A DNA stretch of 52,955 bases, from NCBI GenBank assembly GCA_050575255.1, contig JBNZDD010013120.1, positions 6,476 through 59,430 on the forward strand, read 5' to 3'. This DNA is from Harriotta raleighana (lineage: Eukaryota). Below the pieces are notes generated by a model. That model saw only the letters and a list, made by a program, of their open reading frames with translations, did no database searches and was not told the DNA's origin. Shown piece by piece: positions 16,429 to 52,955 of the stretch. Numbering within the stretch: the first letter of the stretch is position 1; each line of letters begins with the position of its first letter. The position numbers were made by a program, and so were the translations under genes.

Positions 16429-17988
<1,560 letters not shown>

Positions 17989-25994: not shown

Positions 25995-27038
25995 ATGAAC
26001 CCATTAACAATATCCATCTTTATCTTAAGCCTAGGACTAGGCACAACTATCACCTTCTCTAGCTCCCATTGATTACTTGCCTGAATAGGCTTAGAAATTA
26101 ATACCATTGCCATCACCCCCTTAATAATTAAACAACATCACCCCCGAGCTGTAGAAGCAACAACAAAATATTTCCTAACACAAGCTACTGCATCCGCATT
26201 ACTCTTATTCGCAGCTATCACCAACGCTTGAACAACCGGTCAGTGAAGCCTCCTAGAGATAGAAAACACAACTGCCATCTCTCTTATCACTATAGCCTTA
26301 GCCCTCAAATTAGGTCTTGCCCCAATACACTTTTGGCTCCCAGAGGTCCTCCAAGGGCTTGACTTAAAGACAGGCTTAATCTTGGCAACATGACAAAAAC
26401 TCGCCCCTTTCATCATCCTAATCCAAATTGCACCAGCCCTAAACCCTTATATTATAACAATCCTAGCACTCCTCTCTACCTTTATTGGGGGTTGAGGGGG
26501 CCTCAACCAGACACAACTACGAAAAATCCTAGCCTACTCCTCAATCGCCCACCTAGGATGAATAACAATTATCCTACAATACTCTACTAATATCGCTCTT
26601 CTTAACCTTTTTCTATATTTAATTATTACTTCTACTATCTTCCTCTTATTTAATCTATTCAATTCAACAACAATCAACTCAATTTCTATAATAACAACAA
26701 AAAATCCAGCTATTACACCTATTGCTATAATAACCCTCCTTTCCTTGGGGGGTCTTCCACCCCTCACAGGGTTCGTACCAAAATGATTAATTCTTCAAGA
26801 ACTTGTTTATCAAGACATATTCTTAATCGCCACAATCATAGCAATATCCACCCTCCTAAGCTTATTCTTCTATCTCCGACTAACCTACGCCATTACCCTA
26901 ACAATAACCCCCAACACCATAAACATAACATCAATCTGAACAACAAAAAACAACCTGAAGCCCATTCTTCCTATCATTATTACCCTCTCAACAATACTCC
27001 TCCCCCTAACCCCCTTGTTGCTCCTCACTCTCCAATAG
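25995..27038 (+). CDS. ND2: NADH dehydrogenase subunit 2, copy 3
   Basis: Copy at +22244. Confidence 0.94.
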
Positions 27039-27424
27039 AGACTTAAGTTAAACAAACTAAAAGCCTTCAAAGCTTTTTATAGAAGTTCAACTCTTCTAGT
27101 CCCTGTTAAGGTCTATAAGACTTTATCTCATATATTCTGAATGCAACTCAGATACTTTAATTAAGCTAAGACCTCACTAGATGGGTAAGCATCGATCTTA
27201 CAAACTTTTAGTTAACAGCTAAATATTCAAACCATCGAACATCCACCTAGGTCCTTCCTCTTCGCCTTTTAGGGGAAGAGAGGCGAGAGGAAGCCCCGGA
27301 AGGTCCTCCCTTCATTCCCGGAGTTGCAATCCGGTGTGAATTTCACTACGAGACTTGGTAAGAAGAGGTTCTACCCTCTGTAAACGGATTTACAATCCAC
27401 CACCTAAACTCGGCCATCTTACCT

Positions 27425-28984
<1,560 letters not shown>

Positions 28985-29120
28985 AATTGAACCCCCATAT
29001 TTTAGTTTCAAGCTAATTACATAACCACTCTGTCACTCTCTTAATAACACAAAGCACTAGTAAAAGTATTACATTATCTTGTCAAGATAAAATCACGGGC
29101 TAAAAACCCGTGTGCTTTAA

Positions 29121-29811
29121 ATGGCACATCCCTCTCAATTAGGCTTTCAAGACGCAGCTTCCCCCGTAATAGAAGAACTCTTACACTTCCATGACCACAC
29201 CCTTATAATTGTGTTTTTAATCAGCACCCTGGTTCTTTATATCATCACTGTAATAGTGACAACCAAACTCACGAACAAATTTATTCTTGATTCACAAGGA
29301 ATCGAAATTATTTGAACTATTCTTCCAGCTATTATTTTGATCTCAATTGCCCTTCCTTCACTTCGCATTCTCTATCTCATAGATGAAGTAATCAACCCCC
29401 ACCTAACCATTAAAGCAGTCGGACATCAATGATATTGAAGCTACGAATACACTGACTATGAAAACCTAGAATTTGACTCTTACATAGTACAAACACAAGA
29501 CTTAACCCCCGGTCAATTTCGACTCTTAGAAACTGACCATCGTATAGTAATTCCAATAGAGTCCCCAATTCGAATCCTAGTCTCAGCAGACGATGTTCTC
29601 CACTCCTGGTCTGTCCCAGCCCTGGGCGTAAAAATAGACGCTGTGCCAGGGCGACTAAACCAAACTGCTTTTCTAGTTACTCGCCCAGGTGTCTTTTACG
29701 GACAATGTTCAGAAATCTGTGGAGCTAATCACAGCTTTATACCAATTGTAGTAGAAGCCGTGCCTCTTCAACACTTCGAAAACTGATCTCTATTAACATT
29801 AGAAGAAAGCT
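29121..29811 (+). CDS. COX2: cytochrome c oxidase subunit II, copy 3
   Basis: Copy at +22244. Confidence 0.94.
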
Positions 29812-29882
29812 CACTAAGAAGCTAAAGTACCAGCATTAGCCTTTTAAGCTAAAGATAGGTGACTCATAATCACCCTTAATGA

Positions 29883-30047
29883 ATGCCACAACTAAACCCT
29901 AACCCGTGATTCCTAATTCTATTGTTTACATGAACTATCTTCCTAACAGTCCTTCCTAATAAAATTAATAAACATACTTTCACCAATAAACCAACAATTA
30001 ACTTAATCTCCCCAAAAACCAACACCTGAGTCTGACCATGAACTTAA
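29883..30047 (+). CDS. ATP8: ATP synthase F0 subunit 8, copy 3
   Basis: Copy at +22244. Confidence 0.94.
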
Positions 30048-30721
30048 GCTTCTTCGACCAATTCATAAGCCCCTCTCTAATAAACATCCCTCTTCTAGCT
30101 TTAGCCCTTACCCTTCCATGACTACTTTTCCCCACTCTTACAAACCGATGACTAAACAACCGCCTTATTACTCTACAAACATGGTTCATCGGCCAATTCA
30201 CCATCCAACTTCTAACCCCCATCAATGCAAAAGTTCACAAATGAGCAATAATCTTTTGTTCCCTTGTACTTCTTCTTATAACCTTAAACTTATTAGGGCT
30301 TTTACCCTACACCTTCACCCCTACGACTCAACTATCCCTAAACTTAGGACTAGCTATTCCCCTCTGATTAGCAACTGTTTTAGTAGGCATGATTAATCAA
30401 CCCACTACATCCCTTGGTCACCTCCTACCAGAAGGAACCCCTACTCCCCTCATTCCCATACTCATCATCATCGAAACAATTAGTCTCATAATTCGTCCTA
30501 TTGCACTTGCAGTACGGCTTACAGCTAATCTGACAGCTGGCCACCTTTTAATACAACTTATTGCCACTGCAGCCTTCGTATTAATAAATTCTATACCAGT
30601 AGTGGCTATACTGACTTCCATAGTTCTATTCTTACTTACCCTACTGGAAGTAGCAGTCGCACTCATCCAGGCCTATGTCTTCGTCCTCCTATTAAGTCTC
30701 TATCTACAAGAAAACACCTAA
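30038..30721 (+). CDS. ATP6: ATP synthase F0 subunit 6, copy 3
   Basis: Copy at +22244. Confidence 0.94.
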
Positions 30722-31506
30722 TGGCACACCAAGCACATCCATACCACATAGTAGATCAAAGCCCTTGACCTTTAACAGGAGCAGTTGCAGCCCTACTTAT
30801 AACATCGGGCCTAGCTATCTGATTTCATTACAATTCTTTTATTCTACTATCCACCGGACTTATCCTCCTACTATTGACTGTAATCCAATGATGACGAGAT
30901 GTAATTCGAGAAAGTACCTTTCAAGGACACCACACACTCCCAGTACAAAAAGGACTACGATGAGGAATAGTCCTCTTTATTACATCTGAAGTTTTATTCT
31001 TCTTTGGCTTCTTCTGAGCTTTTTACCACTCTAGTTTAGCCCCTACTCCAGAACTAGGAAACTGCTGGCCCCCTACAGGGGTATCTCCTTTAAACCCCTT
31101 TGAAGTACCCCTTCTAAATACAGCAATTTTATTAGCCTCAGGCGTAACAATCACCTGGGCCCATCATAGCCTGATAGAAGGGTCCCGAAAAGAGATAACA
31201 CAAGCCCTAACATTAACAGTTCTTCTAGGGGTGTACTTCACACTTCTACAAGCAATAGAATACTACGAAGCCCCCTTTACAATTTCTGACGGGGTCTACG
31301 GCTCCACATTCTTCGTTGCCACAGGATTCCACGGCCTGCACGTCATCATCGGCACTACCTTTCTCATGGTTTGCCTAGCACGCCAAATCCAATTTCATTT
31401 TACCTCAATGCACCACTTTGGCTTTGAAGCCGCAGCCTGATACTGACACTTTGTAGATGTTGTCTGATTATTCCTTTACGTGTCAATTTATTGATGAGGC
31501 TCATAA
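30721..31506 (+). CDS. COX3: cytochrome c oxidase subunit III, copy 3
   Basis: Copy at +22244. Confidence 0.94.
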
Positions 31507-31574
31507 ATCTTTCTAGTAAAATTTTACAAATGACTTCCAATCATTTAATCTTGGTTAAAACCCAAGGAGAGATA

Positions 31575-31925
31575 ATGAACCTCATTATTCTTGTTTTCAT
31601 TGTATGCTTTACATTATCTTCAATTCTAGTAACCATTGCTTTTTGATTACCCCAATTCAAACCGGATGGAGAGAAACTCTCCCCGTATGAATGTGGTTTT
31701 GACCCACTGGGCTCTGCCCGTCTACCCTTTTCCCTTCGCTTCTTCCTTGTCGCTATTCTTTTTTTATTATTCGATCTAGAAATTGCCCTTCTTCTTCCTA
31801 TTCCTTGAAGTAATCAACTAGAATCCCCAACAATAACCCTCACTGCTGCCCTACTTATTATCATCCTTCTCACACTAGGCCTGGTATACGAATGACTCCA
31901 AGGAGGTTTAGAATGAGCAGAATAG
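31575..31925 (+). CDS. ND3: NADH dehydrogenase subunit 3, copy 3
   Basis: Copy at +22244. Confidence 0.94.
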
Positions 31926-31992
31926 GTGTTTAATCTAAACAAGAACACTAATTTCGACTTAGTACATCGTGATGAAAACACACGAACACCTT

Positions 31993-32289
31993 ATGACACC
32001 CTTACACTTCACATTCTCCGCAGCTTTCACATTAAGCTTCTTCGGCCTAACAATTCACCGTACATATCTCCTCTCCGCCCTTCTTTGTTTAGAAGGAATA
32101 ATACTAACACTATATGTCGCTCTAACCCTCTGATCTGTACAAAACAGCTCTTCCAACTACTTAGTAAGCCCCCTAATCCTACTAGCCTTTTCAGCATGTG
32201 AAGCATGTACAGGCCTAGCCCTTCTAGTAGCTACCACCCGCACCCATGGAAGTAATCACTTACAAAACCTAAATCTCCTACAATGCTAA
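31993..32289 (+). CDS. ND4L: NADH dehydrogenase subunit 4L, copy 3
   Basis: Copy at +22244. Confidence 0.94.
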
Positions 32290-33659
32290 AAATTCTAATC
32301 CCCACCCTTATACTAATAACCTTTACCTGACTTACCCCCAAAAAATGATTATGAACAACAACAACTTCTCACGCCTTCCTCATTGCTGTCGCCTCTCTAA
32401 TTTGATTTAAATGGGATAACGAAACTGGCTGAACTTTTACTAATAATTTTGTAGGGGTAGACCCCCTCTCCGCCCCCTTGATAATCCTCACCTGTTGACT
32501 TCTCCCTTTAATAATAATAGCCAGTCAAAATCACCTAAAAACGGAGCCCATTAATCACCAACGAGCCTACATTACCCTTTTAATCACCTTACAATTATCC
32601 CTAACCATAGCCTTCAGTTCCCTAGAAATGATTTCATTCTACATTATATTCGAAACCACCCTCATCCCAACACTTATTCTCATCACCCGATGAGGAAACC
32701 AAAAAGAACGACTCAACGCAGGTATCTACTTCCTATTTTATACCCTAGCAGGCTCCCTCCCCCTTTTAGTTGCCCTCCTTACCCTCCAAAACTGAACACA
32801 CTCCTTATCTTTGTTCATCCTTCCATTTACACAAACCCAAACAAACGACTGAGGTAATATTTTATGATGAGCCGCCTGCTTAACTGCCTTCTTAGTAAAA
32901 ATACCCCTCTACGGAGTTCACCTCTGACTACCCAAAGCCCATGTAGAAGCCCCTATCGCAGGCTCTATGATTTTAGCAGCTATCCTACTAAAACTAGGAG
33001 GATACGGATTAATACGTATTATTGTAGTCCTAAATCCCTTAACCAAAGACTACGCCTACCCCTTCATCATCCTCTCCGTCTGGGGCATTGTAATAGCTGG
33101 CTCTATTTGTATACGTCAGACAGATCTGAAATCCCTAATCGCTTATTCATCCGTCAGTCATATGGGCCTTGTAACTGCTGCTATTCTTATCCAAACCCCC
33201 TGAAGCTTCATAGGGGCGATATTACTAATGATCTCTCACGGATTAATCTCCTCCGCCCTATTCTGCTTAGCTAATACAAACTATGAACGAATCCATAGCC
33301 GCACCCTTCTGCTAGCCCGAGGAATTCAGACGATCCTTCCACTAATAGCATCCTGATGATTCCTAACCAACCTAGCTAATCTAGCTCTTCCTCCCTCTAC
33401 TAACTTAATAGGAGAACTATTAATCATGACCTCCCTATTCTCCTGATCTGTTTGAACCCTTATTTTAACAGGGTTTGGCACTCTTATTACAGTTTGCTAC
33501 TCCCTTTATATGTTCCTAATAACCCAACGAGGTCTCACTCCCTCTCATTTAATTACCCTCCACCCTTCCCACACACGAGAACACCTAATAATTAGTCTCC
33601 ATCTCATCCCCTCCGCTCTCTTAATTCTTTCTCCCAACCTTATTTTAGGATGAACATAA
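32283..33659 (+). CDS. ND4: NADH dehydrogenase subunit 4, copy 3
   Basis: Copy of 21287-22663. Confidence 0.94.
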
Positions 33660-33867
33660 CAGGTATAGTTTAACTAAAACAATAAATTGTGGTTTTATAA
33701 ATGAAAGTTAAAATCTTTTTGTCCGTCGAACAAGACTAAGGAGTACAAAGAATTGCTAATTCTCGAAACCATAGTTCAACTCTATGGCTTGATCAACTCC
33801 TAAAAGATAATAGTCATCTATTGGTCTTAGGAACCAAAAATTCTTGGTGCAACCCCAAGTAGAAGTA

Positions 33868-35694
33868 ATGAATAGCATCTTCAACTCAGCCTACCTTATG
33901 ATTCTACTACTACTCTTCTTCCCCCTAATTTTACCATTATTCCAAAATGCCTTTGATAAAAACATAGAAAATCACGCTAAATGAGCAATCAAATTAAGCT
34001 TCTTCATCAGCCTCGTCCCCCTTGCTATATTTATTGAACAAGGAGTTCAAACCATTATCACAAACATTTCATGAATCAACCTACCCTTATTTAACATCAA
34101 CCTTAGTTTCAAATTCGACACATACTCCGTCATGTTTACATCTGTAGCCTTATACGTTACATGATCCATCCTAGAATTTACATCCTGATACATGTCCTCT
34201 GACCCTAATATTAACCGCTTCTTCAAATACTTACTCCTGTTTTTAATTACTATAATCCTCCTAGTTACTGCTAATAATATATTTCAACTCTTTATTGGCT
34301 GAGAAGGAGTAGGCATTATATCCTTCCTACTAATTGGATGATGGTACGGCCGAGCCGATGCCAACACTGCTGCTCTCCAAGCTGTCATTTATAACCGAAT
34401 TGGGGACATCGGCCTCATCCTGTGCATAATCTGACTAGCCACAAACCTTAACTCCTGAGATATAAACCAAGCCATATTCCTCTCAAAAGAACTTAATTTA
34501 ACAACCCCCCTATTAGGGCTAGTCCTAGCCGCAACAGGAAAGTCTGCCCAATTTGGCCTCCACCCATGACTTCCTTCCGCTATAGAAGGCCCCACTCCCG
34601 TCTCAGCATTACTCCATTCCAGCACAATAGTAGTAGCCGGGATCTTCCTTTTAATTCGCCTAAGTCCTTTATTTCAAAACAATAAAGAAATCTTAACCCT
34701 CTGCCTATGTTTAGGGGCCCTAACAACCTTATTTACTGCTACTTGTGCCCTGACCCAAAATGACATCAAAAAGATCATTGCCTTTTCCACCTCCAGCCAA
34801 TTAGGGTTAATGATAGTTACCATCGGATTGAACCAACCATACTTAGCCTTCCTTCACGTATGCACACATGCTTTCTTCAAAGCCATATTATTCCTATGTT
34901 CCGGCTCCATCATCCACAGCCTAAATAATGAACAAGACATTCGTAAAATAGGAGGCCTAAATAATCTTATACCTTTTACCTCCTCCTGTATAATACTAGG
35001 GAGCCTTGCTCTCACGGGTATACCCTTCCTATCAGGATTTTTTTCCAAAGATGCAATCATCGAATCGCTTAACACCTCCTACCTGAACGCCTGAGCCCTT
35101 ATTCTTACTCTCCTTGCAACTTCCTTCACCGCTATCTATAGCCTTCGGCTAATTACTTCCACCATAATAGGTTTCCCTCGATTCCCCTCCATTTCCCCCA
35201 TCAATGAAAACTACAAACTCCTTAAAAATCCCATTAAACGCCTAGCATACGGAAGTATCCTTGCAGGCTTCATCCTTACATCTAATATTCCCCACAACAA
35301 AAATCTTATTATAACTATACCTCCCCTAATAAAACTCACAGCCCTATTGATCACAATCCTCGGCCTCATCCTAGCCCTAGAACTCACTAACTTAACAACC
35401 AAACAACTCAAGATCTCCCCTAATATAAAACTACATAATTTCTCTAATATATTAGGGTATTTTCCACCCATTATCCACCGTCTCCTGCCAAGTATTAACT
35501 TGAAATGAGGACAAACAATTGCCACCCACACAATAGACCTAACCTGATATGAAAAAACAGGTCCAAAAATAACAGAACTTAACCAAAAAATCATTAAAAT
35601 TATTCATTCCCCCCAAAAAGGGATAATTAAAACCTATTTAACCCTCTCTCTTCTATCAATTATTACATTACTTCTCTTCTTTACTCTAATTTAA
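33868..35694 (+). CDS. ND5: NADH dehydrogenase subunit 5 (complete)
   Basis: ATG..TAA, 1827 bp; [49 protein letters not shown]. Confidence 0.95.
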
Positions 35695-35978
35695 ACCACC
35701 CGCAACGCTCCTCGACTCAGTCCCCGAATTAATTCAAGAACTGCAAAAAGCGTTAAAAGAAGAATTCATCCAGCCAAAACTAACAACAACACCCCACTAG
35801 AATACATCAAAGACGTACCACTTAAGTCTCCCCGTCATAGACTCAAACCACTAAACTCATCAACCCCCAGCCAATTTAATATATTTCAATCCCCATAAAA
35901 ATATAATACCCCTATACCTACTCCCACTAAATACAACACCACATTAGTCAAAACAGACCGGTCTCACCAACTTTTAGG
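35691..35978 (-). CDS. ND6: NADH dehydrogenase subunit 6 (3' part only, cut by N gap)
   Basis: C-terminus ...[14 protein letters not shown] then TAA on minus strand. Confidence 0.9.
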
Positions 35979-35988: not shown

Positions 35989-36778
35989 TATCAAAGAACC
36001 TATTCGCCCTTCTACCTCCTCCTCCTTTATATTTATACTAGCCCCAACTATAGCCCTAACACTAGCCTTAATTATATGAATACCTCTTCCCCTCCCCTAC
36101 GCCCTTCTAGATATCAACTTAACCATTTTATTCATCCTTGCCCTATCGAGTCTTACAGTTTACGCCATCCTCGCCTCAGGCTGATCTTCAAACTCTAAAT
36201 ACGCATTAATAGGAGCTTTACGAGCAGTAGCCCAAACTATCTCCTATGAAGTCAGCCTAGGACTGATTCTATTATGCTTGATTATTCTCACTGGGAGTTA
36301 CTCACTTATATCCTTTAACATTACACAAGAGAGCATTTGACTGCTAATTCCAGAATGACCCTTAGCCGCAATATGGTATATCTCAACACTAGCTGAAACT
36401 AATCGCGCTCCATTTGATCTCACCGAAGGAGAATCAGAACTAGTCTCAGGCTTCAACGTTGAGTACGCAGGAGGACCCTTTGCCCTACTATTTTTAGCAG
36501 AATATGCAAACATCCTAATAATAAATACCCTCTCAGCCATCCTATTTTTAGGAGCCCTACACAACCCCTTAATACCTGAACTAACCACCATTAACCTCAT
36601 ACTAAAAGCAACTATTTTATCCTTAATATTCCTATGAGTACGAGCATCCTATCCTCGCTTCCGCTACGATCAACTCATACACCTTATCTGAAAAAACTTC
36701 CTTCCCCTATCTTTAGCTCTCATTCTATGACATGTCTCCCTCCCTATCGCTATAGCAAGCGTCCCCCCATCCATTTAA
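35989..36778 (+). CDS. ND1: NADH dehydrogenase subunit 1 (5' truncated), copy 4
   Basis: Copy of 2747-3536. Confidence 0.92.
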
Positions 36779-36992
36779 TATTAAGGAAATGTGCCTGAAT
36801 TAAAGGACTATTTTGATAGAGTAGATAATAGAGGTTAAAGCCCCCTCATTTCCTTAGAACAATAGGACTCGAACCTACACAAAAGAGATCAAAACTCTTT
36901 ATGCTTCCTTACATCACATTCTAAGTAGGGTCAGCTAATTAAGCTTTTGGGCCCATACCCCGAACACGTTGGTTAAAATCCTTCCCCTACTA

Positions 36993-38036
36993 ATGAACCC
37001 ATTAACAATATCCATCTTTATCTTAAGCCTAGGACTAGGCACAACTATCACCTTCTCTAGCTCCCATTGATTACTTGCCTGAATAGGCTTAGAAATTAAT
37101 ACCATTGCCATCACCCCCTTAATAATTAAACAACATCACCCCCGAGCTGTAGAAGCAACAACAAAATATTTCCTAACACAAGCTACTGCATCCGCATTAC
37201 TCTTATTCGCAGCTATCACCAACGCTTGAACAACCGGTCAGTGAAGCCTCCTAGAGATAGAAAACACAACTGCCATCTCTCTTATCACTATAGCCTTAGC
37301 CCTCAAATTAGGTCTTGCCCCAATACACTTTTGGCTCCCAGAGGTCCTCCAAGGGCTTGACTTAAAGACAGGCTTAATCTTGGCAACATGACAAAAACTC
37401 GCCCCTTTCATCATCCTAATCCAAATTGCACCAGCCCTAAACCCTTATATTATAACAATCCTAGCACTCCTCTCTACCTTTATTGGGGGTTGAGGGGGCC
37501 TCAACCAGACACAACTACGAAAAATCCTAGCCTACTCCTCAATCGCCCACCTAGGATGAATAACAATTATCCTACAATACTCTACTAATATCGCTCTTCT
37601 TAACCTTTTTCTATATTTAATTATTACTTCTACTATCTTCCTCTTATTTAATCTATTCAATTCAACAACAATCAACTCAATTTCTATAATAACAACAAAA
37701 AATCCAGCTATTACACCTATTGCTATAATAACCCTCCTTTCCTTGGGGGGTCTTCCACCCCTCACAGGGTTCGTACCAAAATGATTAATTCTTCAAGAAC
37801 TTGTTTATCAAGACATATTCTTAATCGCCACAATCATAGCAATATCCACCCTCCTAAGCTTATTCTTCTATCTCCGACTAACCTACGCCATTACCCTAAC
37901 AATAACCCCCAACACCATAAACATAACATCAATCTGAACAACAAAAAACAACCTGAAGCCCATTCTTCCTATCATTATTACCCTCTCAACAATACTCCTC
38001 CCCCTAACCCCCTTGTTGCTCCTCACTCTCCAATAG
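36993..38036 (+). CDS. ND2: NADH dehydrogenase subunit 2, copy 4
   Basis: Copy at +33242. Confidence 0.94.
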
Positions 38037-38422
38037 AGACTTAAGTTAAACAAACTAAAAGCCTTCAAAGCTTTTTATAGAAGTTCAACTCTTCTAGTCC
38101 CTGTTAAGGTCTATAAGACTTTATCTCATATATTCTGAATGCAACTCAGATACTTTAATTAAGCTAAGACCTCACTAGATGGGTAAGCATCGATCTTACA
38201 AACTTTTAGTTAACAGCTAAATATTCAAACCATCGAACATCCACCTAGGTCCTTCCTCTTCGCCTTTTAGGGGAAGAGAGGCGAGAGGAAGCCCCGGAAG
38301 GTCCTCCCTTCATTCCCGGAGTTGCAATCCGGTGTGAATTTCACTACGAGACTTGGTAAGAAGAGGTTCTACCCTCTGTAAACGGATTTACAATCCACCA
38401 CCTAAACTCGGCCATCTTACCT

Positions 38423-39982
<1,560 letters not shown>

Positions 39983-40118
39983 AATTGAACCCCCATATTT
40001 TAGTTTCAAGCTAATTACATAACCACTCTGTCACTCTCTTAATAACACAAAGCACTAGTAAAAGTATTACATTATCTTGTCAAGATAAAATCACGGGCTA
40101 AAAACCCGTGTGCTTTAA

Positions 40119-40809
40119 ATGGCACATCCCTCTCAATTAGGCTTTCAAGACGCAGCTTCCCCCGTAATAGAAGAACTCTTACACTTCCATGACCACACCC
40201 TTATAATCGTATTCTTGATCAGTACTCTAGTAATCTATATCATCACAGTGACAGTAACAACTAAATTAACAAACAAATTTATTCTTGATTCACAAGGAAT
40301 CGAAATTATTTGAACTATTCTTCCAGCTATTATTTTGATCTCAATTGCCCTCCCATCCCTGCGTATTCTATACCTTATAGATGAAATTATTAACCCACAC
40401 CTTACAATTAAAGCAGTCGGACATCAATGATATTGAAGCTACGAATACACTGACTATGAAAACCTAGAATTTGACTCTTACATAGTACAAACACAAGACT
40501 TAACCCCCGGTCAATTTCGACTCTTAGAAACTGACCATCGTATAGTAATTCCAATAGAGGCCCCTATCCGTATTTTAGTATCAGCTGATGACGTACTACA
40601 CTCATGGGCCGTACCCGCCTTAGGGGTAAAAATAGACGCTGTGCCAGGGCGACTAAACCAAACTGCTTTTCTAGTTACTCGCCCAGGTGTCTTTTACGGA
40701 CAATGTTCAGAAATCTGTGGAGCTAATCACAGCTTTATACCAATTGTAGTAGAAGCCGTGCCTCTTCAACACTTCGAAAACTGATCTCTATTAACATTAG
40801 AAGAAAGCT
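40119..40809 (+). CDS. COX2: cytochrome c oxidase subunit II, mosaic variant (three divergent blocks, 5 aa changes)
   Basis: Frame intact; differs from other copies at 40208-40271, 40352-40406, 40560-40625. Confidence 0.93.
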
Positions 40810-40880
40810 CACTAAGAAGCTAAAGTACCAGCATTAGCCTTTTAAGCTAAAGATAGGTGACTCATAATCACCCTTAATGA

Positions 40881-41048
40881 ATGCCACAACTAAACCCTAA
40901 CCCGTGATTCCTAATCATTTTATTTACTTGAGCTATTTTCTTGACCATCCTTCCCAATAAGATTAATAAACACACCTTTTCTAATAAACCCGCAATTCAT
41001 AACATCCCCGCTCCTAAAACTAATAACTGAAACTGACCATGAACTTAA
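40881..41048 (+). CDS. ATP8: ATP synthase F0 subunit 8, divergent 55-aa variant
   Basis: MPQLNPNPWFLIILFTWAIFLTILPNKINKHTFSNKPAIHNIPAPKTNNWNWPWT, 168 bp. Confidence 0.93.
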
Positions 41049-41722
41049 GCTTCTTCGACCAATTCATAAGCCCCTCTCTAATAAACATCCCTCTTCTAGC
41101 TTTAGCCCTTACCCTTCCATGACTACTTTTCCCCACTCTTACAAACCGATGACTAAACAACCGCCTTATTACTCTACAAACCTGATTTATTGGACAATTT
41201 ACTAACCAACTTCTTTCGCCTATTAACCCTAAAATGCATAAATGAGCAATAATCTTTTGTTCCCTTGTACTTCTTCTTATAACCTTAAACCTCTTGGGAT
41301 TATTACCTTATACCTTTACCCCCACAACCCAACTATCCTTAAACCTAGGCCTAGCTGTCCCTCTCTGACTAGCTACAGTTTTAGTAGGCATGATTAATCA
41401 ACCCACTACATCCCTTGGTCACCTCCTACCAGAAGGAACCCCTACTCCCCTCATTCCCATACTCATCATCATCGAAACAATTAGTCTCATAATTCGTCCT
41501 ATTGCACTTGCAGTACGGCTTACAGCTAATCTGACAGCTGGCCACCTTTTAATACAACTTATTGCCACTGCAGCCTTCGTATTAATAAATTCTATACCAG
41601 TAGTGGCTATACTGACTTCCATAGTTCTATTCTTGCTCACACTTCTAGAAGTAGCTGTAGCACTTATTCAAGCATACGTATTTGTCCTCCTATTAAGTCT
41701 CTATCTACAAGAAAACACCTAA
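41039..41722 (+). CDS. ATP6: ATP synthase F0 subunit 6, mosaic variant (three divergent blocks, 5 aa changes)
   Basis: Frame intact; differs at 41182-41239, 41291-41377, 41635-41683. Confidence 0.93.
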
Positions 41723-42507
41723 TGGCACACCAAGCACATCCATACCACATAGTAGATCAAAGCCCTTGACCTTTAACAGGAGCAGTTGCAGCCCTACTTA
41801 TAACATCGGGCCTAGCTATCTGATTTCATTACAACTCCTTTATCTTGCTTTCCGTCGGACTACTCCTGCTAACGCTGACTGTAATCCAATGATGACGAGA
41901 TGTAATTCGAGAAAGTACCTTTCAAGGACACCACACACTCCCAGTACAAAAAGGACTACGATGAGGAATAGTCCTCTTTATTACATCTGAAGTTTTATTC
42001 TTCTTTGGCTTCTTCTGAGCTTTTTACCACTCTAGTTTAGCCCCTACTCCAGAACTAGGAAACTGCTGGCCCCCTACAGGGGTATCTCCTTTAAACCCCT
42101 TTGAAGTACCCCTTCTAAATACAGCAATTTTATTAGCCTCAGGCGTAACAATCACCTGGGCCCATCATAGCCTGATAGAAGGGTCCCGAAAAGAGATAAC
42201 ACAAGCCCTAACATTAACAGTTCTTCTAGGGGTGTACTTCACACTTCTACAAGCAATAGAATACTACGAAGCCCCCTTTACAATTTCTGACGGGGTCTAC
42301 GGCTCCACATTCTTCGTTGCCACAGGATTCCACGGCCTGCACGTCATCATCGGCACTACCTTTCTCATGGTTTGCCTAGCACGCCAAATCCAATTTCATT
42401 TTACCTCAATGCACCACTTTGGCTTTGAAGCCGCAGCCTGATACTGACACTTTGTAGATGTTGTCTGATTATTCCTTTACGTGTCAATTTATTGATGAGG
42501 CTCATAA
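41722..42507 (+). CDS. COX3: cytochrome c oxidase subunit III, mosaic variant (one divergent block, 3 aa changes)
   Basis: Frame intact; differs at 41835-41875. Confidence 0.93.
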
Positions 42508-42575
42508 ATCTTTCTAGTAAAATTTTACAAATGACTTCCAATCATTTAATCTTGGTTAAAACCCAAGGAGAGATA

Positions 42576-42926
42576 ATGAACCTCATTATTCTTGTTTTCA
42601 TTGTATGCTTTACATTATCTTCAATTCTAGTAACCATTGCTTTTTGATTACCCCAATTCAAACCGGATGGAGAGAAACTCTCCCCGTATGAATGTGGTTT
42701 TGACCCACTGGGCTCTGCCCGTCTACCCTTTTCCCTTCGCTTCTTCCTTGTCGCTATTCTTTTTTTATTATTCGATCTAGAAATTGCCCTTCTTCTTCCT
42801 ATTCCTTGAAGTAATCAACTAGAATCCCCAACAATAACCCTCACTGCTGCCCTACTTATTATCATCCTTCTCACACTAGGCCTGGTATACGAATGACTCC
42901 AAGGAGGTTTAGAATGAGCAGAATAG
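42576..42926 (+). CDS. ND3: NADH dehydrogenase subunit 3, copy 4
   Basis: Copy at +33245. Confidence 0.94.
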
Positions 42927-42993
42927 GTGTTTAATCTAAACAAGAACACTAATTTCGACTTAGTACATCGTGATGAAAACACACGAACACCTT

Positions 42994-43290
42994 ATGACAC
43001 CCTTACACTTCACATTCTCCGCAGCTTTCACATTAAGCTTCTTCGGCCTAACAATTCACCGTACATATCTCCTCTCCGCCCTTCTTTGTTTAGAAGGAAT
43101 AATACTAACACTATATGTCGCTCTAACCCTCTGATCTGTACAAAACAGCTCTTCCAACTACTTAGTAAGCCCCCTAATCCTACTAGCCTTTTCAGCATGT
43201 GAAGCATGTACAGGCCTAGCCCTTCTAGTAGCTACCACCCGCACCCATGGAAGTAATCACTTACAAAACCTAAATCTCCTACAATGCTAA
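42994..43290 (+). CDS. ND4L: NADH dehydrogenase subunit 4L, copy 4
   Basis: Copy at +33245. Confidence 0.94.
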
Positions 43291-44660
43291 AAATTCTAAT
43301 CCCCACCCTTATACTAATAACCTTTACCTGACTTACCCCCAAAAAATGATTATGAACAACAACAACTTCTCACGCCTTCCTCATTGCTGTCGCCTCTCTA
43401 ATTTGATTTAAATGGGATAACGAAACTGGCTGAACTTTTACTAATAATTTTGTAGGGGTAGACCCCCTCTCCGCCCCCTTGATAATCCTCACCTGTTGAC
43501 TTCTCCCTTTAATAATAATAGCCAGTCAAAATCACCTAAAAACGGAGCCCATTAATCACCAACGAGCCTACATTACCCTTTTAATCACCTTACAATTATC
43601 CCTAACCATAGCCTTCAGTTCCCTAGAAATGATTTCATTCTACATTATATTCGAAACCACCCTCATCCCAACACTTATTCTCATCACCCGATGAGGAAAC
43701 CAAAAAGAACGACTCAACGCAGGTATCTACTTCCTATTTTATACCCTAGCAGGCTCCCTCCCCCTTTTAGTTGCCCTCCTTACCCTCCAAAACTGAACAC
43801 ACTCCTTATCTTTGTTCATCCTTCCATTTACACAAACCCAAACAAACGACTGAGGTAATATTTTATGATGAGCCGCCTGCTTAACTGCCTTCTTAGTAAA
43901 AATACCCCTCTACGGAGTTCACCTCTGACTACCCAAAGCCCATGTAGAAGCCCCTATCGCAGGCTCTATGATTTTAGCAGCTATCCTACTAAAACTAGGA
44001 GGATACGGATTAATACGTATTATTGTAGTCCTAAATCCCTTAACCAAAGACTACGCCTACCCCTTCATCATCCTCTCCGTCTGGGGCATTGTAATAGCTG
44101 GCTCTATTTGTATACGTCAGACAGATCTGAAATCCCTAATCGCTTATTCATCCGTCAGTCATATGGGCCTTGTAACTGCTGCTATTCTTATCCAAACCCC
44201 CTGAAGCTTCATAGGGGCGATATTACTAATGATCTCTCACGGATTAATCTCCTCCGCCCTATTCTGCTTAGCTAATACAAACTATGAACGAATCCATAGC
44301 CGCACCCTTCTGCTAGCCCGAGGAATTCAGACGATCCTTCCACTAATAGCATCCTGATGATTCCTAACCAACCTAGCTAATCTAGCTCTTCCTCCCTCTA
44401 CTAACTTAATAGGAGAACTATTAATCATGACCTCCCTATTCTCCTGATCTGTTTGAACCCTTATTTTAACAGGGTTTGGCACTCTTATTACAGTTTGCTA
44501 CTCCCTTTATATGTTCCTAATAACCCAACGAGGTCTCACTCCCTCTCATTTAATTACCCTCCACCCTTCCCACACACGAGAACACCTAATAATTAGTCTC
44601 CATCTCATCCCCTCCGCTCTCTTAATTCTTTCTCCCAACCTTATTTTAGGATGAACATAA
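43284..44660 (+). CDS. ND4: NADH dehydrogenase subunit 4, copy 4
   Basis: Copy of 21287-22663. Confidence 0.94.
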
Positions 44661-44868
44661 CAGGTATAGTTTAACTAAAACAATAAATTGTGGTTTTATA
44701 AATGAAAGTTAAAATCTTTTTGTCCGTCGAACAAGACTAAGGAGTACAAAGAATTGCTAATTCTCGAAACCATAGTTCAACTCTATGGCTTGATCAACTC
44801 CTAAAAGATAATAGTCATCTATTGGTCTTAGGAACCAAAAATTCTTGGTGCAACCCCAAGTAGAAGTA

Positions 44869-46695
44869 ATGAATAGCATCTTCAACTCAGCCTACCTTAT
44901 GATTCTACTACTACTCTTCTTCCCCCTAATTTTACCATTATTCCAAAATGCCTTTGATAAAAACATAGAAAATCACGCTAAATGAGCAATCAAATTAAGC
45001 TTCTTCATCAGCCTCGTCCCCCTTGCTATATTTATTGAACAAGGAGTTCAAACCATTATCACAAACATTTCATGAATCAACCTACCCTTATTTAACATCA
45101 ACCTTAGTTTCAAATTCGACACATACTCCGTCATGTTTACATCTGTAGCCTTATACGTTACATGATCCATCCTAGAATTTACATCCTGATACATGTCCTC
45201 TGACCCTAATATTAACCGCTTCTTCAAATACTTACTCCTGTTTTTAATTACTATAATCCTCCTAGTTACTGCTAATAATATATTTCAACTCTTTATTGGC
45301 TGAGAAGGAGTAGGCATTATATCCTTCCTACTAATTGGATGATGGTACGGCCGAGCCGATGCCAACACTGCTGCTCTCCAAGCTGTCATTTATAACCGAA
45401 TTGGGGACATCGGCCTCATCCTGTGCATAATCTGACTAGCCACAAACCTTAACTCCTGAGATATAAACCAAGCCATATTCCTCTCAAAAGAACTTAATTT
45501 AACAACCCCCCTATTAGGGCTAGTCCTAGCCGCAACAGGAAAGTCTGCCCAATTTGGCCTCCACCCATGACTTCCTTCCGCTATAGAAGGCCCCACTCCC
45601 GTCTCAGCATTACTCCATTCCAGCACAATAGTAGTAGCCGGGATCTTCCTTTTAATTCGCCTAAGTCCTTTATTTCAAAACAATAAAGAAATCTTAACCC
45701 TCTGCCTATGTTTAGGGGCCCTAACAACCTTATTTACTGCTACTTGTGCCCTGACCCAAAATGACATCAAAAAGATCATTGCCTTTTCCACCTCCAGCCA
45801 ATTAGGGTTAATGATAGTTACCATCGGATTGAACCAACCATACTTAGCCTTCCTTCACGTATGCACACATGCTTTCTTCAAAGCCATATTATTCCTATGT
45901 TCCGGCTCCATCATCCACAGCCTAAATAATGAACAAGACATTCGTAAAATAGGAGGCCTAAATAATCTTATACCTTTTACCTCCTCCTGTATAATACTAG
46001 GGAGCCTTGCTCTCACGGGTATACCCTTCCTATCAGGATTTTTTTCCAAAGATGCAATCATCGAATCGCTTAACACCTCCTACCTGAACGCCTGAGCCCT
46101 TATTCTTACTCTCCTTGCAACTTCCTTCACCGCTATCTATAGCCTTCGGCTAATTACTTCCACCATAATAGGTTTCCCTCGATTCCCCTCCATTTCCCCC
46201 ATCAATGAAAACTACAAACTCCTTAAAAATCCCATTAAACGCCTAGCATACGGAAGTATCCTTGCAGGCTTCATCCTTACATCTAATATTCCCCACAACA
46301 AAAATCTTATTATAACTATACCTCCCCTAATAAAACTCACAGCCCTATTGATCACAATCCTCGGCCTCATCCTAGCCCTAGAACTCACTAACTTAACAAC
46401 CAAACAACTCAAGATCTCCCCTAATATAAAACTACATAATTTCTCTAATATATTAGGGTATTTTCCACCCATTATCCACCGTCTCCTGCCAAGTATTAAC
46501 TTGAAATGAGGACAAACAATTGCCACCCACACAATAGACCTAACCTGATATGAAAAAACAGGTCCAAAAATAACAGAACTTAACCAAAAAATCATTAAAA
46601 TTATTCATTCCCCCCAAAAAGGGATAATTAAAACCTATTTAACCCTCTCTCTTCTATCAATTATTACATTACTTCTCTTCTTTACTCTAATTTAA
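44869..46695 (+). CDS. ND5: NADH dehydrogenase subunit 5, copy 4
   Basis: Copy of 33868-35694. Confidence 0.94.
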
Positions 46696-47213
46696 ACCAC
46701 CCGCAACGCTCCTCGACTCAGTCCCCGAATTAATTCAAGAACTGCAAAAAGCGTTAAAAGAAGAATTCATCCAGCCAAAACTAACAACAACACCCCACTA
46801 GAATACATCAAAGACGTACCACTTAAGTCTCCCCGTCATAGACTCAAACCACTAAACTCATCAACCCCCAGCCAATTTAATATATTTCAATCCCCATAAA
46901 AATATAATACCCCTATACCTACTCCCACTAAATACAACACCACATTAGTCAAAACAGACCGGTCTCACCAACTTTTAGGAAACGGCTCAGCTGTTAAAGC
47001 AGCCGAATACACAAACACAACTAGTATTCCCCCTAAATAAATCAAAAACAAAACAAAAGACAAGAAAGAAGTACCATGACTAGCTAACAAACCACACCCC
47101 ACGGCCGCTGACACCACTAACCCAAATGCCCCAAAATAAGGAGCAGGATTAGACGCCACCGCCACCAAGCCCATAATAAAACATATAAGTATTAAAATTA
47201 CAAAATAAATCAT
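46692..47213 (-). CDS. ND6: NADH dehydrogenase subunit 6 (complete)
   Basis: 522 bp; VASNPAPYFGAFGLV, FLIYLGGMLVVFVYSAAL; reads through TGA=Trp to TAA. Confidence 0.95.
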
Positions 47214-47283
47214 TATTTCTATCTGGATTTTAACCAGAACTAATGACCTGAAAAATCACCGTTGTTAATTCAACTATAAAAAC
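47214..47283 (-). tRNA. trnE: tRNA-Glu (TTC)
   Basis: atgac-ctgaaaa-atcac arm on + strand; between ND6 and CYTB; second copy at 52859-52928. Confidence 0.88.
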
Positions 47284-47285
47284 AT

Positions 47286-47310
47286 ATGACCCAAAACCTA
47301 CGAAAAACCC
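47286..47310 (+). CDS. CYTB: cytochrome b, first 8 codons only
   Basis: MTQNLRKT directly after trnE. Confidence 0.85.
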
Positions 47311-47320: not shown

Positions 47321-47367
47321 ATGTCTTCGTCCTCCTATTAAGTCTCTATCTACAAGAAAACACCTAA
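47321..47367 (+). CDS. ATP6: ATP6 3' end fragment, copy 5
   Basis: [14 protein letters not shown] then TAA. Confidence 0.88.
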
Positions 47368-48152
47368 TGGCACACCAAGCACATCCATACCACATAGTAG
47401 ATCAAAGCCCTTGACCTTTAACAGGAGCAGTTGCAGCCCTACTTATAACATCGGGCCTAGCTATCTGATTTCATTACAATTCTTTTATTCTACTATCCAC
47501 CGGACTTATCCTCCTACTATTGACTGTAATCCAATGATGACGAGATGTAATTCGAGAAAGTACCTTTCAAGGACACCACACACTCCCAGTACAAAAAGGA
47601 CTACGATGAGGAATAGTCCTCTTTATTACATCTGAAGTTTTATTCTTCTTTGGCTTCTTCTGAGCTTTTTACCACTCTAGTTTAGCCCCTACTCCAGAAC
47701 TAGGAAACTGCTGGCCCCCTACAGGGGTATCTCCTTTAAACCCCTTTGAAGTACCCCTTCTAAATACAGCAATTTTATTAGCCTCAGGCGTAACAATCAC
47801 CTGGGCCCATCATAGCCTGATAGAAGGGTCCCGAAAAGAGATAACACAAGCCCTAACATTAACAGTTCTTCTAGGGGTGTACTTCACACTTCTACAAGCA
47901 ATAGAATACTACGAAGCCCCCTTTACAATTTCTGACGGGGTCTACGGCTCCACATTCTTCGTTGCCACAGGATTCCACGGCCTGCACGTCATCATCGGCA
48001 CTACCTTTCTCATGGTTTGCCTAGCACGCCAAATCCAATTTCATTTTACCTCAATGCACCACTTTGGCTTTGAAGCCGCAGCCTGATACTGACACTTTGT
48101 AGATGTTGTCTGATTATTCCTTTACGTGTCAATTTATTGATGAGGCTCATAA
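47367..48152 (+). CDS. COX3: cytochrome c oxidase subunit III, copy 5 (majority type)
   Basis: Copy at +38890. Confidence 0.94.
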
Positions 48153-48220
48153 ATCTTTCTAGTAAAATTTTACAAATGACTTCCAATCATTTAATCTTGG
48201 TTAAAACCCAAGGAGAGATA

Positions 48221-48571
48221 ATGAACCTCATTATTCTTGTTTTCATTGTATGCTTTACATTATCTTCAATTCTAGTAACCATTGCTTTTTGATTACCCCA
48301 ATTCAAACCGGATGGAGAGAAACTCTCCCCGTATGAATGTGGTTTTGACCCACTGGGCTCTGCCCGTCTACCCTTTTCCCTTCGCTTCTTCCTTGTCGCT
48401 ATTCTTTTTTTATTATTCGATCTAGAAATTGCCCTTCTTCTTCCTATTCCTTGAAGTAATCAACTAGAATCCCCAACAATAACCCTCACTGCTGCCCTAC
48501 TTATTATCATCCTTCTCACACTAGGCCTGGTATACGAATGACTCCAAGGAGGTTTAGAATGAGCAGAATAG
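48221..48571 (+). CDS. ND3: NADH dehydrogenase subunit 3, copy 5
   Basis: Copy at +38890. Confidence 0.94.
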
Positions 48572-48638
48572 GTGTTTAATCTAAACAAGAACACTAATTT
48601 CGACTTAGTACATCGTGATGAAAACACACGAACACCTT

Positions 48639-48935
48639 ATGACACCCTTACACTTCACATTCTCCGCAGCTTTCACATTAAGCTTCTTCGGCCTAACAAT
48701 TCACCGTACATATCTCCTCTCCGCCCTTCTTTGTTTAGAAGGAATAATACTAACACTATATGTCGCTCTAACCCTCTGATCTGTACAAAACAGCTCTTCC
48801 AACTACTTAGTAAGCCCCCTAATCCTACTAGCCTTTTCAGCATGTGAAGCATGTACAGGCCTAGCCCTTCTAGTAGCTACCACCCGCACCCATGGAAGTA
48901 ATCACTTACAAAACCTAAATCTCCTACAATGCTAA
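48639..48935 (+). CDS. ND4L: NADH dehydrogenase subunit 4L, copy 5
   Basis: Copy at +38890. Confidence 0.94.
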
Positions 48936-50305
48936 AAATTCTAATCCCCACCCTTATACTAATAACCTTTACCTGACTTACCCCCAAAAAATGATTATGA
49001 ACAACAACAACTTCTCACGCCTTCCTCATTGCTGTCGCCTCTCTAATTTGATTTAAATGGGATAACGAAACTGGCTGAACTTTTACTAATAATTTTGTAG
49101 GGGTAGACCCCCTCTCCGCCCCCTTGATAATCCTCACCTGTTGACTTCTCCCTTTAATAATAATAGCCAGTCAAAATCACCTAAAAACGGAGCCCATTAA
49201 TCACCAACGAGCCTACATTACCCTTTTAATCACCTTACAATTATCCCTAACCATAGCCTTCAGTTCCCTAGAAATGATTTCATTCTACATTATATTCGAA
49301 ACCACCCTCATCCCAACACTTATTCTCATCACCCGATGAGGAAACCAAAAAGAACGACTCAACGCAGGTATCTACTTCCTATTTTATACCCTAGCAGGCT
49401 CCCTCCCCCTTTTAGTTGCCCTCCTTACCCTCCAAAACTGAACACACTCCTTATCTTTGTTCATCCTTCCATTTACACAAACCCAAACAAACGACTGAGG
49501 TAATATTTTATGATGAGCCGCCTGCTTAACTGCCTTCTTAGTAAAAATACCCCTCTACGGAGTTCACCTCTGACTACCCAAAGCCCATGTAGAAGCCCCT
49601 ATCGCAGGCTCTATGATTTTAGCAGCTATCCTACTAAAACTAGGAGGATACGGATTAATACGTATTATTGTAGTCCTAAATCCCTTAACCAAAGACTACG
49701 CCTACCCCTTCATCATCCTCTCCGTCTGGGGCATTGTAATAGCTGGCTCTATTTGTATACGTCAGACAGATCTGAAATCCCTAATCGCTTATTCATCCGT
49801 CAGTCATATGGGCCTTGTAACTGCTGCTATTCTTATCCAAACCCCCTGAAGCTTCATAGGGGCGATATTACTAATGATCTCTCACGGATTAATCTCCTCC
49901 GCCCTATTCTGCTTAGCTAATACAAACTATGAACGAATCCATAGCCGCACCCTTCTGCTAGCCCGAGGAATTCAGACGATCCTTCCACTAATAGCATCCT
50001 GATGATTCCTAACCAACCTAGCTAATCTAGCTCTTCCTCCCTCTACTAACTTAATAGGAGAACTATTAATCATGACCTCCCTATTCTCCTGATCTGTTTG
50101 AACCCTTATTTTAACAGGGTTTGGCACTCTTATTACAGTTTGCTACTCCCTTTATATGTTCCTAATAACCCAACGAGGTCTCACTCCCTCTCATTTAATT
50201 ACCCTCCACCCTTCCCACACACGAGAACACCTAATAATTAGTCTCCATCTCATCCCCTCCGCTCTCTTAATTCTTTCTCCCAACCTTATTTTAGGATGAA
50301 CATAA
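48929..50305 (+). CDS. ND4: NADH dehydrogenase subunit 4, copy 5
   Basis: Copy of 21287-22663. Confidence 0.94.
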
Positions 50306-50513
50306 CAGGTATAGTTTAACTAAAACAATAAATTGTGGTTTTATAAATGAAAGTTAAAATCTTTTTGTCCGTCGAACAAGACTAAGGAGTACAAAGAATT
50401 GCTAATTCTCGAAACCATAGTTCAACTCTATGGCTTGATCAACTCCTAAAAGATAATAGTCATCTATTGGTCTTAGGAACCAAAAATTCTTGGTGCAACC
50501 CCAAGTAGAAGTA

Positions 50514-52340
50514 ATGAATAGCATCTTCAACTCAGCCTACCTTATGATTCTACTACTACTCTTCTTCCCCCTAATTTTACCATTATTCCAAAATGCCTTT
50601 GATAAAAACATAGAAAATCACGCTAAATGAGCAATCAAATTAAGCTTCTTCATCAGCCTCGTCCCCCTTGCTATATTTATTGAACAAGGAGTTCAAACCA
50701 TTATCACAAACATTTCATGAATCAACCTACCCTTATTTAACATCAACCTTAGTTTCAAATTCGACACATACTCCGTCATGTTTACATCTGTAGCCTTATA
50801 CGTTACATGATCCATCCTAGAATTTACATCCTGATACATGTCCTCTGACCCTAATATTAACCGCTTCTTCAAATACTTACTCCTGTTTTTAATTACTATA
50901 ATCCTCCTAGTTACTGCTAATAATATATTTCAACTCTTTATTGGCTGAGAAGGAGTAGGCATTATATCCTTCCTACTAATTGGATGATGGTACGGCCGAG
51001 CCGATGCCAACACTGCTGCTCTCCAAGCTGTCATTTATAACCGAATTGGGGACATCGGCCTCATCCTGTGCATAATCTGACTAGCCACAAACCTTAACTC
51101 CTGAGATATAAACCAAGCCATATTCCTCTCAAAAGAACTTAATTTAACAACCCCCCTATTAGGGCTAGTCCTAGCCGCAACAGGAAAGTCTGCCCAATTT
51201 GGCCTCCACCCATGACTTCCTTCCGCTATAGAAGGCCCCACTCCCGTCTCAGCATTACTCCATTCCAGCACAATAGTAGTAGCCGGGATCTTCCTTTTAA
51301 TTCGCCTAAGTCCTTTATTTCAAAACAATAAAGAAATCTTAACCCTCTGCCTATGTTTAGGGGCCCTAACAACCTTATTTACTGCTACTTGTGCCCTGAC
51401 CCAAAATGACATCAAAAAGATCATTGCCTTTTCCACCTCCAGCCAATTAGGGTTAATGATAGTTACCATCGGATTGAACCAACCATACTTAGCCTTCCTT
51501 CACGTATGCACACATGCTTTCTTCAAAGCCATATTATTCCTATGTTCCGGCTCCATCATCCACAGCCTAAATAATGAACAAGACATTCGTAAAATAGGAG
51601 GCCTAAATAATCTTATACCTTTTACCTCCTCCTGTATAATACTAGGGAGCCTTGCTCTCACGGGTATACCCTTCCTATCAGGATTTTTTTCCAAAGATGC
51701 AATCATCGAATCGCTTAACACCTCCTACCTGAACGCCTGAGCCCTTATTCTTACTCTCCTTGCAACTTCCTTCACCGCTATCTATAGCCTTCGGCTAATT
51801 ACTTCCACCATAATAGGTTTCCCTCGATTCCCCTCCATTTCCCCCATCAATGAAAACTACAAACTCCTTAAAAATCCCATTAAACGCCTAGCATACGGAA
51901 GTATCCTTGCAGGCTTCATCCTTACATCTAATATTCCCCACAACAAAAATCTTATTATAACTATACCTCCCCTAATAAAACTCACAGCCCTATTGATCAC
52001 AATCCTCGGCCTCATCCTAGCCCTAGAACTCACTAACTTAACAACCAAACAACTCAAGATCTCCCCTAATATAAAACTACATAATTTCTCTAATATATTA
52101 GGGTATTTTCCACCCATTATCCACCGTCTCCTGCCAAGTATTAACTTGAAATGAGGACAAACAATTGCCACCCACACAATAGACCTAACCTGATATGAAA
52201 AAACAGGTCCAAAAATAACAGAACTTAACCAAAAAATCATTAAAATTATTCATTCCCCCCAAAAAGGGATAATTAAAACCTATTTAACCCTCTCTCTTCT
52301 ATCAATTATTACATTACTTCTCTTCTTTACTCTAATTTAA
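50514..52340 (+). CDS. ND5: NADH dehydrogenase subunit 5, copy 5
   Basis: Copy of 33868-35694. Confidence 0.94.
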
Positions 52341-52858
52341 ACCACCCGCAACGCTCCTCGACTCAGTCCCCGAATTAATTCAAGAACTGCAAAAAGCGTT
52401 AAAAGAAGAATTCATCCAGCCAAAACTAACAACAACACCCCACTAGAATACATCAAAGACGTACCACTTAAGTCTCCCCGTCATAGACTCAAACCACTAA
52501 ACTCATCAACCCCCAGCCAATTTAATATATTTCAATCCCCATAAAAATATAATACCCCTATACCTACTCCCACTAAATACAACACCACATTAGTCAAAAC
52601 AGACCGGTCTCACCAACTTTTAGGAAACGGCTCAGCTGTTAAAGCAGCCGAATACACAAACACAACTAGTATTCCCCCTAAATAAATCAAAAACAAAACA
52701 AAAGACAAGAAAGAAGTACCATGACTAGCTAACAAACCACACCCCACGGCCGCTGACACCACTAACCCAAATGCCCCAAAATAAGGAGCAGGATTAGACG
52801 CCACCGCCACCAAGCCCATAATAAAACATATAAGTATTAAAATTACAAAATAAATCAT
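52337..52858 (-). CDS. ND6: NADH dehydrogenase subunit 6, copy 5
   Basis: Copy of 46692-47213. Confidence 0.94.
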
Positions 52859-52930
52859 TATTTCTATCTGGATTTTAACCAGAACTAATGACCTGAAAAA
52901 TCACCGTTGTTAATTCAACTATAAAAACAT

Positions 52931-52955
52931 ATGACCCAAAACCTACGAAAAACCC
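52931..52955 (+). CDS. CYTB: cytochrome b, first 8 codons only, copy 5
   Basis: MTQNLRKT at window end. Confidence 0.85.

Follow-up and report, generated by a model that had tools for sequence, protein, structure and literature searches.

One of five nearly identical mitochondrial pieces in a stretch of assembled DNA carries eight short blocks of a second, strongly divergent mitochondrial sequence, which raises the question whether two mitochondrial genomes exchanged segments in a living animal, or whether the patchwork arose during data processing. The stretch analysed here (the window, 52,955 nucleotides) is made up of five mitogenome pieces joined by 10-N spacers (11239-11248, 23353-23362, 35979-35988 and 47311-47320), each being part of one vertebrate mitochondrial genome with the standard gene order and in the same orientation. 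Copy 1 (1..11238, on the + strand, as are all features described below) extends from the 12S rRNA gene to cox3, copy 2 (11249..23352) from 12S to nad5, copy 3 (23363..35978), the reference in our comparisons, from 16S to nad6, and copy 5 (47321..52955) from the end of atp6 to the start of cytb; these four carry the majority haplotype. Copy 4 (35989..47310), the piece with the eight foreign blocks, is a rhinochimaerid partial mitogenome from nad1 to the start of cytb. The pieces overlap between 12S rRNA and the initial codons of cytb, an alignment of 14,068 columns in which copies 1, 2, 3 and 5 show 100% identity wherever two or more of them are present. Copies 1 and 2 begin at the same point, copies 4 and 5 end at the same point, and the control region is found in none of the five. 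A tandem array of mitochondrial genomes was considered and rejected, since the spacers join separate overlapping records. Identical, overlapping and with staggered ends, the pieces represent different routes by which the mitochondrial genome of one rhinochimaerid was assembled, probably isoforms produced by a transcript assembler.

The majority ATP6 protein shows 96% identity to Rhinochimaera and 94% to Harriotta raleighana, and differs at 9-14 residues from four named rhinochimaerids, while the majority COX2 differs from that of R. pacifica at one residue, and the majority ATP8 has 54 amino acids, the length found in Rhinochimaera and Harriotta. None of these three proteins has an exact match in a collection of 15 billion proteins. 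The host is thus a rhinochimaerid whose mitogenome is apparently not yet represented in the protein collection.

Eight foreign blocks and their donor

A MAFFT alignment of all five pieces contains 156 variable columns, every one private to copy 4 and located within 40208-41875. They comprise 153 substitutions and, at 40997-40999, an insertion of 3 bp, distributed over eight blocks with a total length of 537 bp; the block coordinates and difference counts that the earlier note had obtained by hand were therefore right, as was its impression that copy 4 is free of differences between the blocks and elsewhere. In order, the blocks are 64, 55, 66, 117, 58, 87, 49 and 41 bp long, with a divergence of 24-37% each, and are separated by gaps of 80, 153, 290, 149, 51, 257 and 151 bp with zero differences. 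The cox2 gene of copy 4 (40119..40809) is a mosaic containing block 1 (40208..40271; 18 substitutions), which yields the residues I39 and T45, block 2 (40352..40406; 14 substitutions), with I90 as in six of six chimaerids, and block 3 (40560..40625; 20 substitutions), with A148 and A164. It is followed by the tRNA-Lys region (40810..40880), identified by its position between cox2 and atp8, which is of host type in copy 4. The atp8 gene (40881..41048), in which block 4 (40916..41032) introduces 32 substitutions and the 3-bp insertion, encodes the donor protein sequence. The atp6 gene (41039..41722) is again a mosaic, with block 5 (41182..41239; 19 substitutions; chimaerid residues N56, S60, P64 and M66), block 6 (41291..41377; 21 substitutions; V107) and block 7 (41635..41683; 14 substitutions, all synonymous), whereas cox3 (41722..42507) contains only block 8 (41835..41875), whose 15 substitutions are non-synonymous in three codons. 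Alignment revealed no foreign letters in the remaining 9.6 kb of copy 4, including nad2, nad4, nad5 and nad6. Of the eight blocks, copy 5 includes no more than the last part of block 7 and block 8, where 18 of 18 variable sites are of majority type.

All reading frames of copy 4 are open under translation table 2. When atp8 is left out of the count, 96 of the 121 differences in cox2, atp6 and cox3 fall at third codon positions, and the encoded residue stays the same in 93 of 106 changed codons, in agreement with the open frames and mainly third-position changes noticed earlier. Sequencing error can be rejected as the source of the blocks, because the changes are mostly synonymous and spell the residues of another species.

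That species can be narrowed down at the protein level. The 55-residue ATP8 of copy 4 is identical to a protein in UniRef and NCBI nr, the cluster of which has six named members, all Chimaera and Hydrolagus; the other five proteins looked up, among them the majority ATP8, ATP6 and COX2, are absent from the collection. When COX2 was compared with 11 named holocephalan sequences, Hydrolagus mirabilis was found to have five of the five residues that copy 4 carries in its blocks, and the other 10 named references had 0-2 of 5; moreover, I39, T45 and A148 occur only in H. mirabilis among the 11. The five ATP6 block residues are all present in five of nine chimaerids, and over the whole protein H. 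mirabilis is the closest, with 6 differences. At the diagnostic residues copy 4 is of donor type inside the blocks (5/5 in COX2 and 5/5 in ATP6) and of host type in the flanks (4/4 and 6/6, respectively); that is, at the 20 sites of these two proteins that distinguish the host from H. mirabilis, it follows the donor at 10/10 inside the blocks and the host at 10/10 outside. Because the ATP8, COX2 and ATP6 residues match in this way, the donor is, as judged from its proteins, a chimaerid, H. mirabilis or a very close relative. According to the accessible part of PMC11521621, the common ancestor of Chimaeridae and Rhinochimaeridae lived ~201 Ma. As in chimeric mitogenomes, different fragments of copy 4 thus closely match different species. 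A plain second haplotype or second individual, on the other hand, was rejected, because gaps of up to 290 bp are free of differences where the donor differs.

Host and donor sequences in independent sequencing runs

A search with 189 sampled words listed 17 sequencing runs, seven of which share part of the words (shares of 0.07-0.26); half of the words occurs in 0 of the 17 runs listed, and no RNA run with words is among those listed. The evidence used here comes from four of the 17 runs, which were aligned to positions 40100-42000; one of them, X2, gave no contig, perhaps owing to filtering, and the site-level figures come from 40 of 326 difference rows listed, all of them in blocks 1-3 and nearby flanks. 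Run X9 consists of raw genomic reads labelled as the host, of which 65,272 align to this region; at 35 of 35 listed block sites, no fewer than 98.9% of them have the majority letter. Because its 145 listed changes match the copy 4-to-copy 3 spectrum of 153 changes class by class, X9 is of host type with essentially no flank differences. X9 and the contigs of run X1, which also have the majority letters at listed block sites, are independent host material without the fragments, in which alleles below about 1% could hide. The X1 contigs are host-like, cover 10 of 30 bins of the aligned region and have letters of their own at 40271, 40310, 40361, 40460 and 40508; they would represent a third, host-like haplotype, belonging either to the host species as a second haplotype or to a sister species.

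The counterpart is found in run X4, record 5 of which is one contig of 10,682 nt (depth 12.3) that spans 40105-42000. This contig has the host letter at none of the 35 listed block sites, a comparison with copy 4 that leaves room for third letters inside the blocks, and no gap at the 3-bp insertion; it differs from copy 4 by 180 other letters and 2 gaps, and its word share is 0.24. It has two extra A in tRNA-Lys, and its upstream continuation is a divergent tRNA sequence. Judging from these letters, the X4 contig behaves as an intact donor genome, being copy-4-like in the blocks and unlike copy 4 in the flanks; from the 35/35 block sites, the protein map and the word share, all 180 differences probably lie in the flanks. 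Block-type sequence hence continues with divergent letters into the flanks, both in the X4 contig and in the H. mirabilis residues, and the proteins encoded in the blocks agree with those of another, known species (ATP8 exactly, COX2 and ATP6 by their residues); these are two of the observations that the earlier note had set against a biological mosaic. The X4 contig may itself be foreign DNA, as its depth is only 12.3 and seven runs with the same species label are nearly without the sampled words.

Both donor-type single-A insertions in the tRNA-Lys region (40821 and 40825) were also observed in seven of ~3,800 X9 reads, with three start points and no sign of mosaic structure. This ~0.2% of donor-like sequence in a host-labelled DNA library would fit traces of chimaerid DNA that entered as contamination, and equally a mitochondrial insertion in the nucleus (NUMT).

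Placing of the blocks and origin of the mosaic

With the X4 contig taken as the donor, divergence from the host is 153/537 (28.5%) in the blocks and 180/1359 (13.2%) in the flanks, the overall value being 17.6% (block versus flank, Fisher p = 3e-14, or 7e-11 without the 16 boundary sites). Tracts placed at random on sequences with the same mean donor divergence attained 28.5% in 0 of 20,000 trials, and, after regional rate variation had been added, in 16 and 84 of 5,000. The block edges are equally distinctive: all 16 have at least 6 differences within the first 23 nt inward, a pattern seen in 0 of 20,000 trials of random tracts. Under +1/-4 local scoring (match +1 and mismatch -4 being the default of BWA-MEM), the best inward score is at most 0 at 15 of the 16 edges, the remaining one having +3, and with increasing rate heterogeneity, scores of at most 3 at all 16 edges arose in only 0, 0 and 1 of 5,000 null trials; under +2/-6 scoring, most edges can be extended. 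The blocks are therefore the most divergent windows of the donor, thresholded and with abrupt, dense edges. Homology-dependent gene conversion, in contrast, predicts a bias to similar windows rather than divergent ones.

The flanks of three blocks reveal how close to the junctions the donor differs. About 9 nt past block 2, at COX2 codon 100 (I in six of six chimaerids), ~11-13 nt before block 7, at ATP6 codon 195 (L in nine of nine chimaerids), and ~12-14 nt after block 5, at ATP6 codon 72 (H. mirabilis only), the donor differs and copy 4 has the host residue. No natural 21-31-mer is thus shared at these three junctions, and therefore bases must have been overwritten.

The diagnostic residues, the divergent flanks of the donor and the excess of divergence in the blocks together uphold the reading preferred in the earlier note, namely that copy 4 is chimeric with sequence of a related species and that overwriting spared just the most divergent windows. 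We regard it as almost certain that the patchwork was produced in data processing and not by mitochondrial recombination; if all artefact readings are combined, we come very close to certainty that one of them holds. Specifically, copy 4 is probably (at roughly 0.83) an in-silico chimera, in which contaminant chimaerid reads were overwritten by host sequence where divergence was low. The same data would have contained a little sequence of a chimaerid, either H. mirabilis or one very close to it, most likely through cross-sample contamination. A base-overwriting step, in the form of read correction (by k-mers or by alignment) or of a consensus or polishing based on mapping of the far commoner host reads, would then have turned donor letters into host letters below ~20-25% local divergence, and would have stopped where the differences were denser. 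The surviving islands of 41-117 bp would have formed bubbles joined to host-identical flanks, and, lying at most 290 bp apart, could have been phased by read pairs into one path.

Two simulations of such a step reproduce the pattern in part. A k-mer threshold of, e.g., 7 per 25 nt gave 12 blocks, 35% cover and divergences of 26.8% inside and 12.6% outside the blocks, and mapping overwrite with 150-nt reads and heterogeneity gave 4.8 blocks, 33% cover, 27.4% inside and 12.5% outside, the observed values being 8 blocks with a median of 61 bp, 28% cover, 28.5% and 13.2%. Block numbers ranged from 9 to 14 in the k-mer threshold model and from 4.5 to 6.4, with medians of 100-138 bp, in the mapping model; the simulations roughly bracket the observed values, with cover and divergence of about the right size, and neither simple model matches all five summary numbers. 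Blocks occur neither in cox1 nor in other genes of copy 4, an absence that overwriting explains only partly. As to the ingredients, the available text of PMC5370491 reports at least one foreign cox1 match in 353 of 446 RNA-seq samples of one project, and cross-contamination is described there and in the corresponding part of PMC5838952 as common in multi-species sequencing. The read corrector Rcorrector sets a limit on changes per k-window, and the conversion of reads from a low-abundance homologue to the high-abundance one is a failure mode named in the accessible text of PMC4615873; the same text states that clustered corrections are reverted, by which paralogues are protected, and this counts against overwriting.

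Letters of the donor could also have been left over from a reference, if a published H. mirabilis mitogenome had served as seed or reference and its letters had been kept where host reads did not map. This would be an artefact too, and it agrees with the H. mirabilis residues at 10/10 diagnostic sites, with edges of the kind expected from +1/-4 soft clipping, with a drop in the depth of host-type reads on copy 4 at blocks 4 and 5, and with loose read ends at the first base beyond blocks 3, 5 and 8 (40626, 41240 and 41876, respectively); it is, moreover, the cause proposed for published chimeras (PMC12840897, and PMC8462277 in its accessible part). However, the four sibling pieces are clean, and closer rhinochimaerid references exist. 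Furthermore, the 9.6 kb of copy 4 free of foreign letters include nad2, nad4, nad5 and nad6, which are usually more divergent than cox2, and the blocks are confined to cox2-cox3, whose transcripts rank with the most abundant mitochondrial mRNAs. This confinement points to contaminant reads that were scarce rather than to a left-over reference, from which blocks would be expected in nad genes as well; we consider such a reference an unlikely source. It is very improbable that a host NUMT was merged into the mitochondrial path. The seven donor-like X9 reads would suit such an insertion, but an old one in the host would carry neither I39, T45 and A148, private to one extant chimaerid, nor an exact ATP8 of the other family; there is no decay, the frames being intact and the changes mostly synonymous, and a mosaic with host-identical flanks would be an assembly product anyway.

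Plain path switching in a de Bruijn graph of uncorrected host and contaminant reads, through naturally shared k-mers and with no overwriting, is more doubtful still. The block edges do adjoin conserved coding motifs, but 16 junctions would be required, and at three of them the donor codons ~9-14 nt away differ where copy 4 is of host type; the at least k-1 (20-30) identical shared bases are lacking there, so that switching was rejected for these junctions, unless the donor individual was without those residues. Finally, real micro-tract gene conversion between rhinochimaerid and chimaerid mitochondrial DNA in a living animal has, in our judgement, hardly any chance of being the explanation. 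Open frames and a clean mosaic speak for it, as does the claim of interspecific mitochondrial recombinants among salangid fishes, with a divergence of up to 8.5% (PMC9144084, accessible part). On the other hand, the two families split ~201 Ma (PMC11521621, in the text available), which speaks against parents able to bring their genomes into one cell. The tracts fall on the most divergent windows, with junction identity down to ~9 nt; eight of them lie in cis within 1.7 kb and none elsewhere; and at least 98.9% of host-type genomic reads carry the majority letters at the 35 listed sites. Since every residue tested is identical between the donor alleles and an extant species, such an exchange could only have happened very recently. 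A minor haplotype with eight tracts of 41-117 bp in cox2, atp8, atp6 and cox3, recently copied from an H. mirabilis-like genome with the frames kept open, is accordingly given the same minimal credence, the trace (~0.2%) of donor-like reads in a host-labelled DNA run being part of what leaves room for it.

Relation to known chimeric mitogenomes

Copy 4 belongs to a known class, the interspecific chimeric mitogenomes, and is unusual only in the size of its fragments and in their divergence-thresholded placing. The chimeras described by Sangster and Luksenburg (PMC8462277, in its accessible part) and in PMC12840897 contain 1-10 heterospecific fragments with 7.5-23.3% divergence. They resemble copy 4 in that fragments match different species and originated in the laboratory or in bioinformatic processing; their fragments, however, measure 70-11,911 bp (mean 1,204), as opposed to 41-117 bp with eight within 1.7 kb in copy 4, where the fragments are restricted to the most divergent windows and the chimera is accompanied by clean sibling copies. 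Multiplexed transcriptomes of multi-species projects also commonly contain foreign reads from highly expressed mitochondrial genes (Ballenghien et al., PMC5370491; CroCo, PMC5838952), where, in the available text, whole foreign reads or transcripts are concerned, whereas in copy 4 foreign sequence is interleaved with that of the host; the string 'chimer' occurs 0 times in the main text of either paper. The accessible account of over-correction by Rcorrector (PMC4615873) offers a further parallel, as the program shifts reads onto the high-count path so long as the changes per k-window do not exceed a threshold; for copy 4, however, a corrector is one candidate step, and the edges fit +1/-4 local alignment equally well. 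The salangid recombinants (PMC9144084, accessible part) are mosaics as well, containing fragments that are the same, or almost the same, as in another species, but they involve confamilial species with at most 8.5% divergence and longer fragments, one of which comprises all of ND4; copy 4 combines ~17.6% mean divergence and families split ~200 Ma with tracts selected for divergence. A literature search found no description of a fine-grained, divergence-thresholded mosaic, although one may still exist.

The patchwork is a contamination warning without biological significance. The chimeric copy is hard to see, being 98.6% identical to its siblings, with open frames and mostly synonymous changes; it would pass marker checks based on cox1, nad2 or cytb, and would yield a strong false signal in recombination tests. 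Interleaved foreign sequence of this kind would probably slip past whole-transcript filters, and nuclear transcripts from the same data set may be similarly patched. The placing of the fragments can serve as a diagnostic: an enrichment of densely edged fragments where the donor is most divergent suggests that software has overwritten bases, while real conversion should favour similar windows.

A minor observation concerns the start of copy 5 (47321, corresponding to 41676 in copy-4 coordinates), which falls inside block 7, eight bases before its end, and has majority letters; this may reflect a break of the assembly graph caused by the bubble, or may be due to chance.
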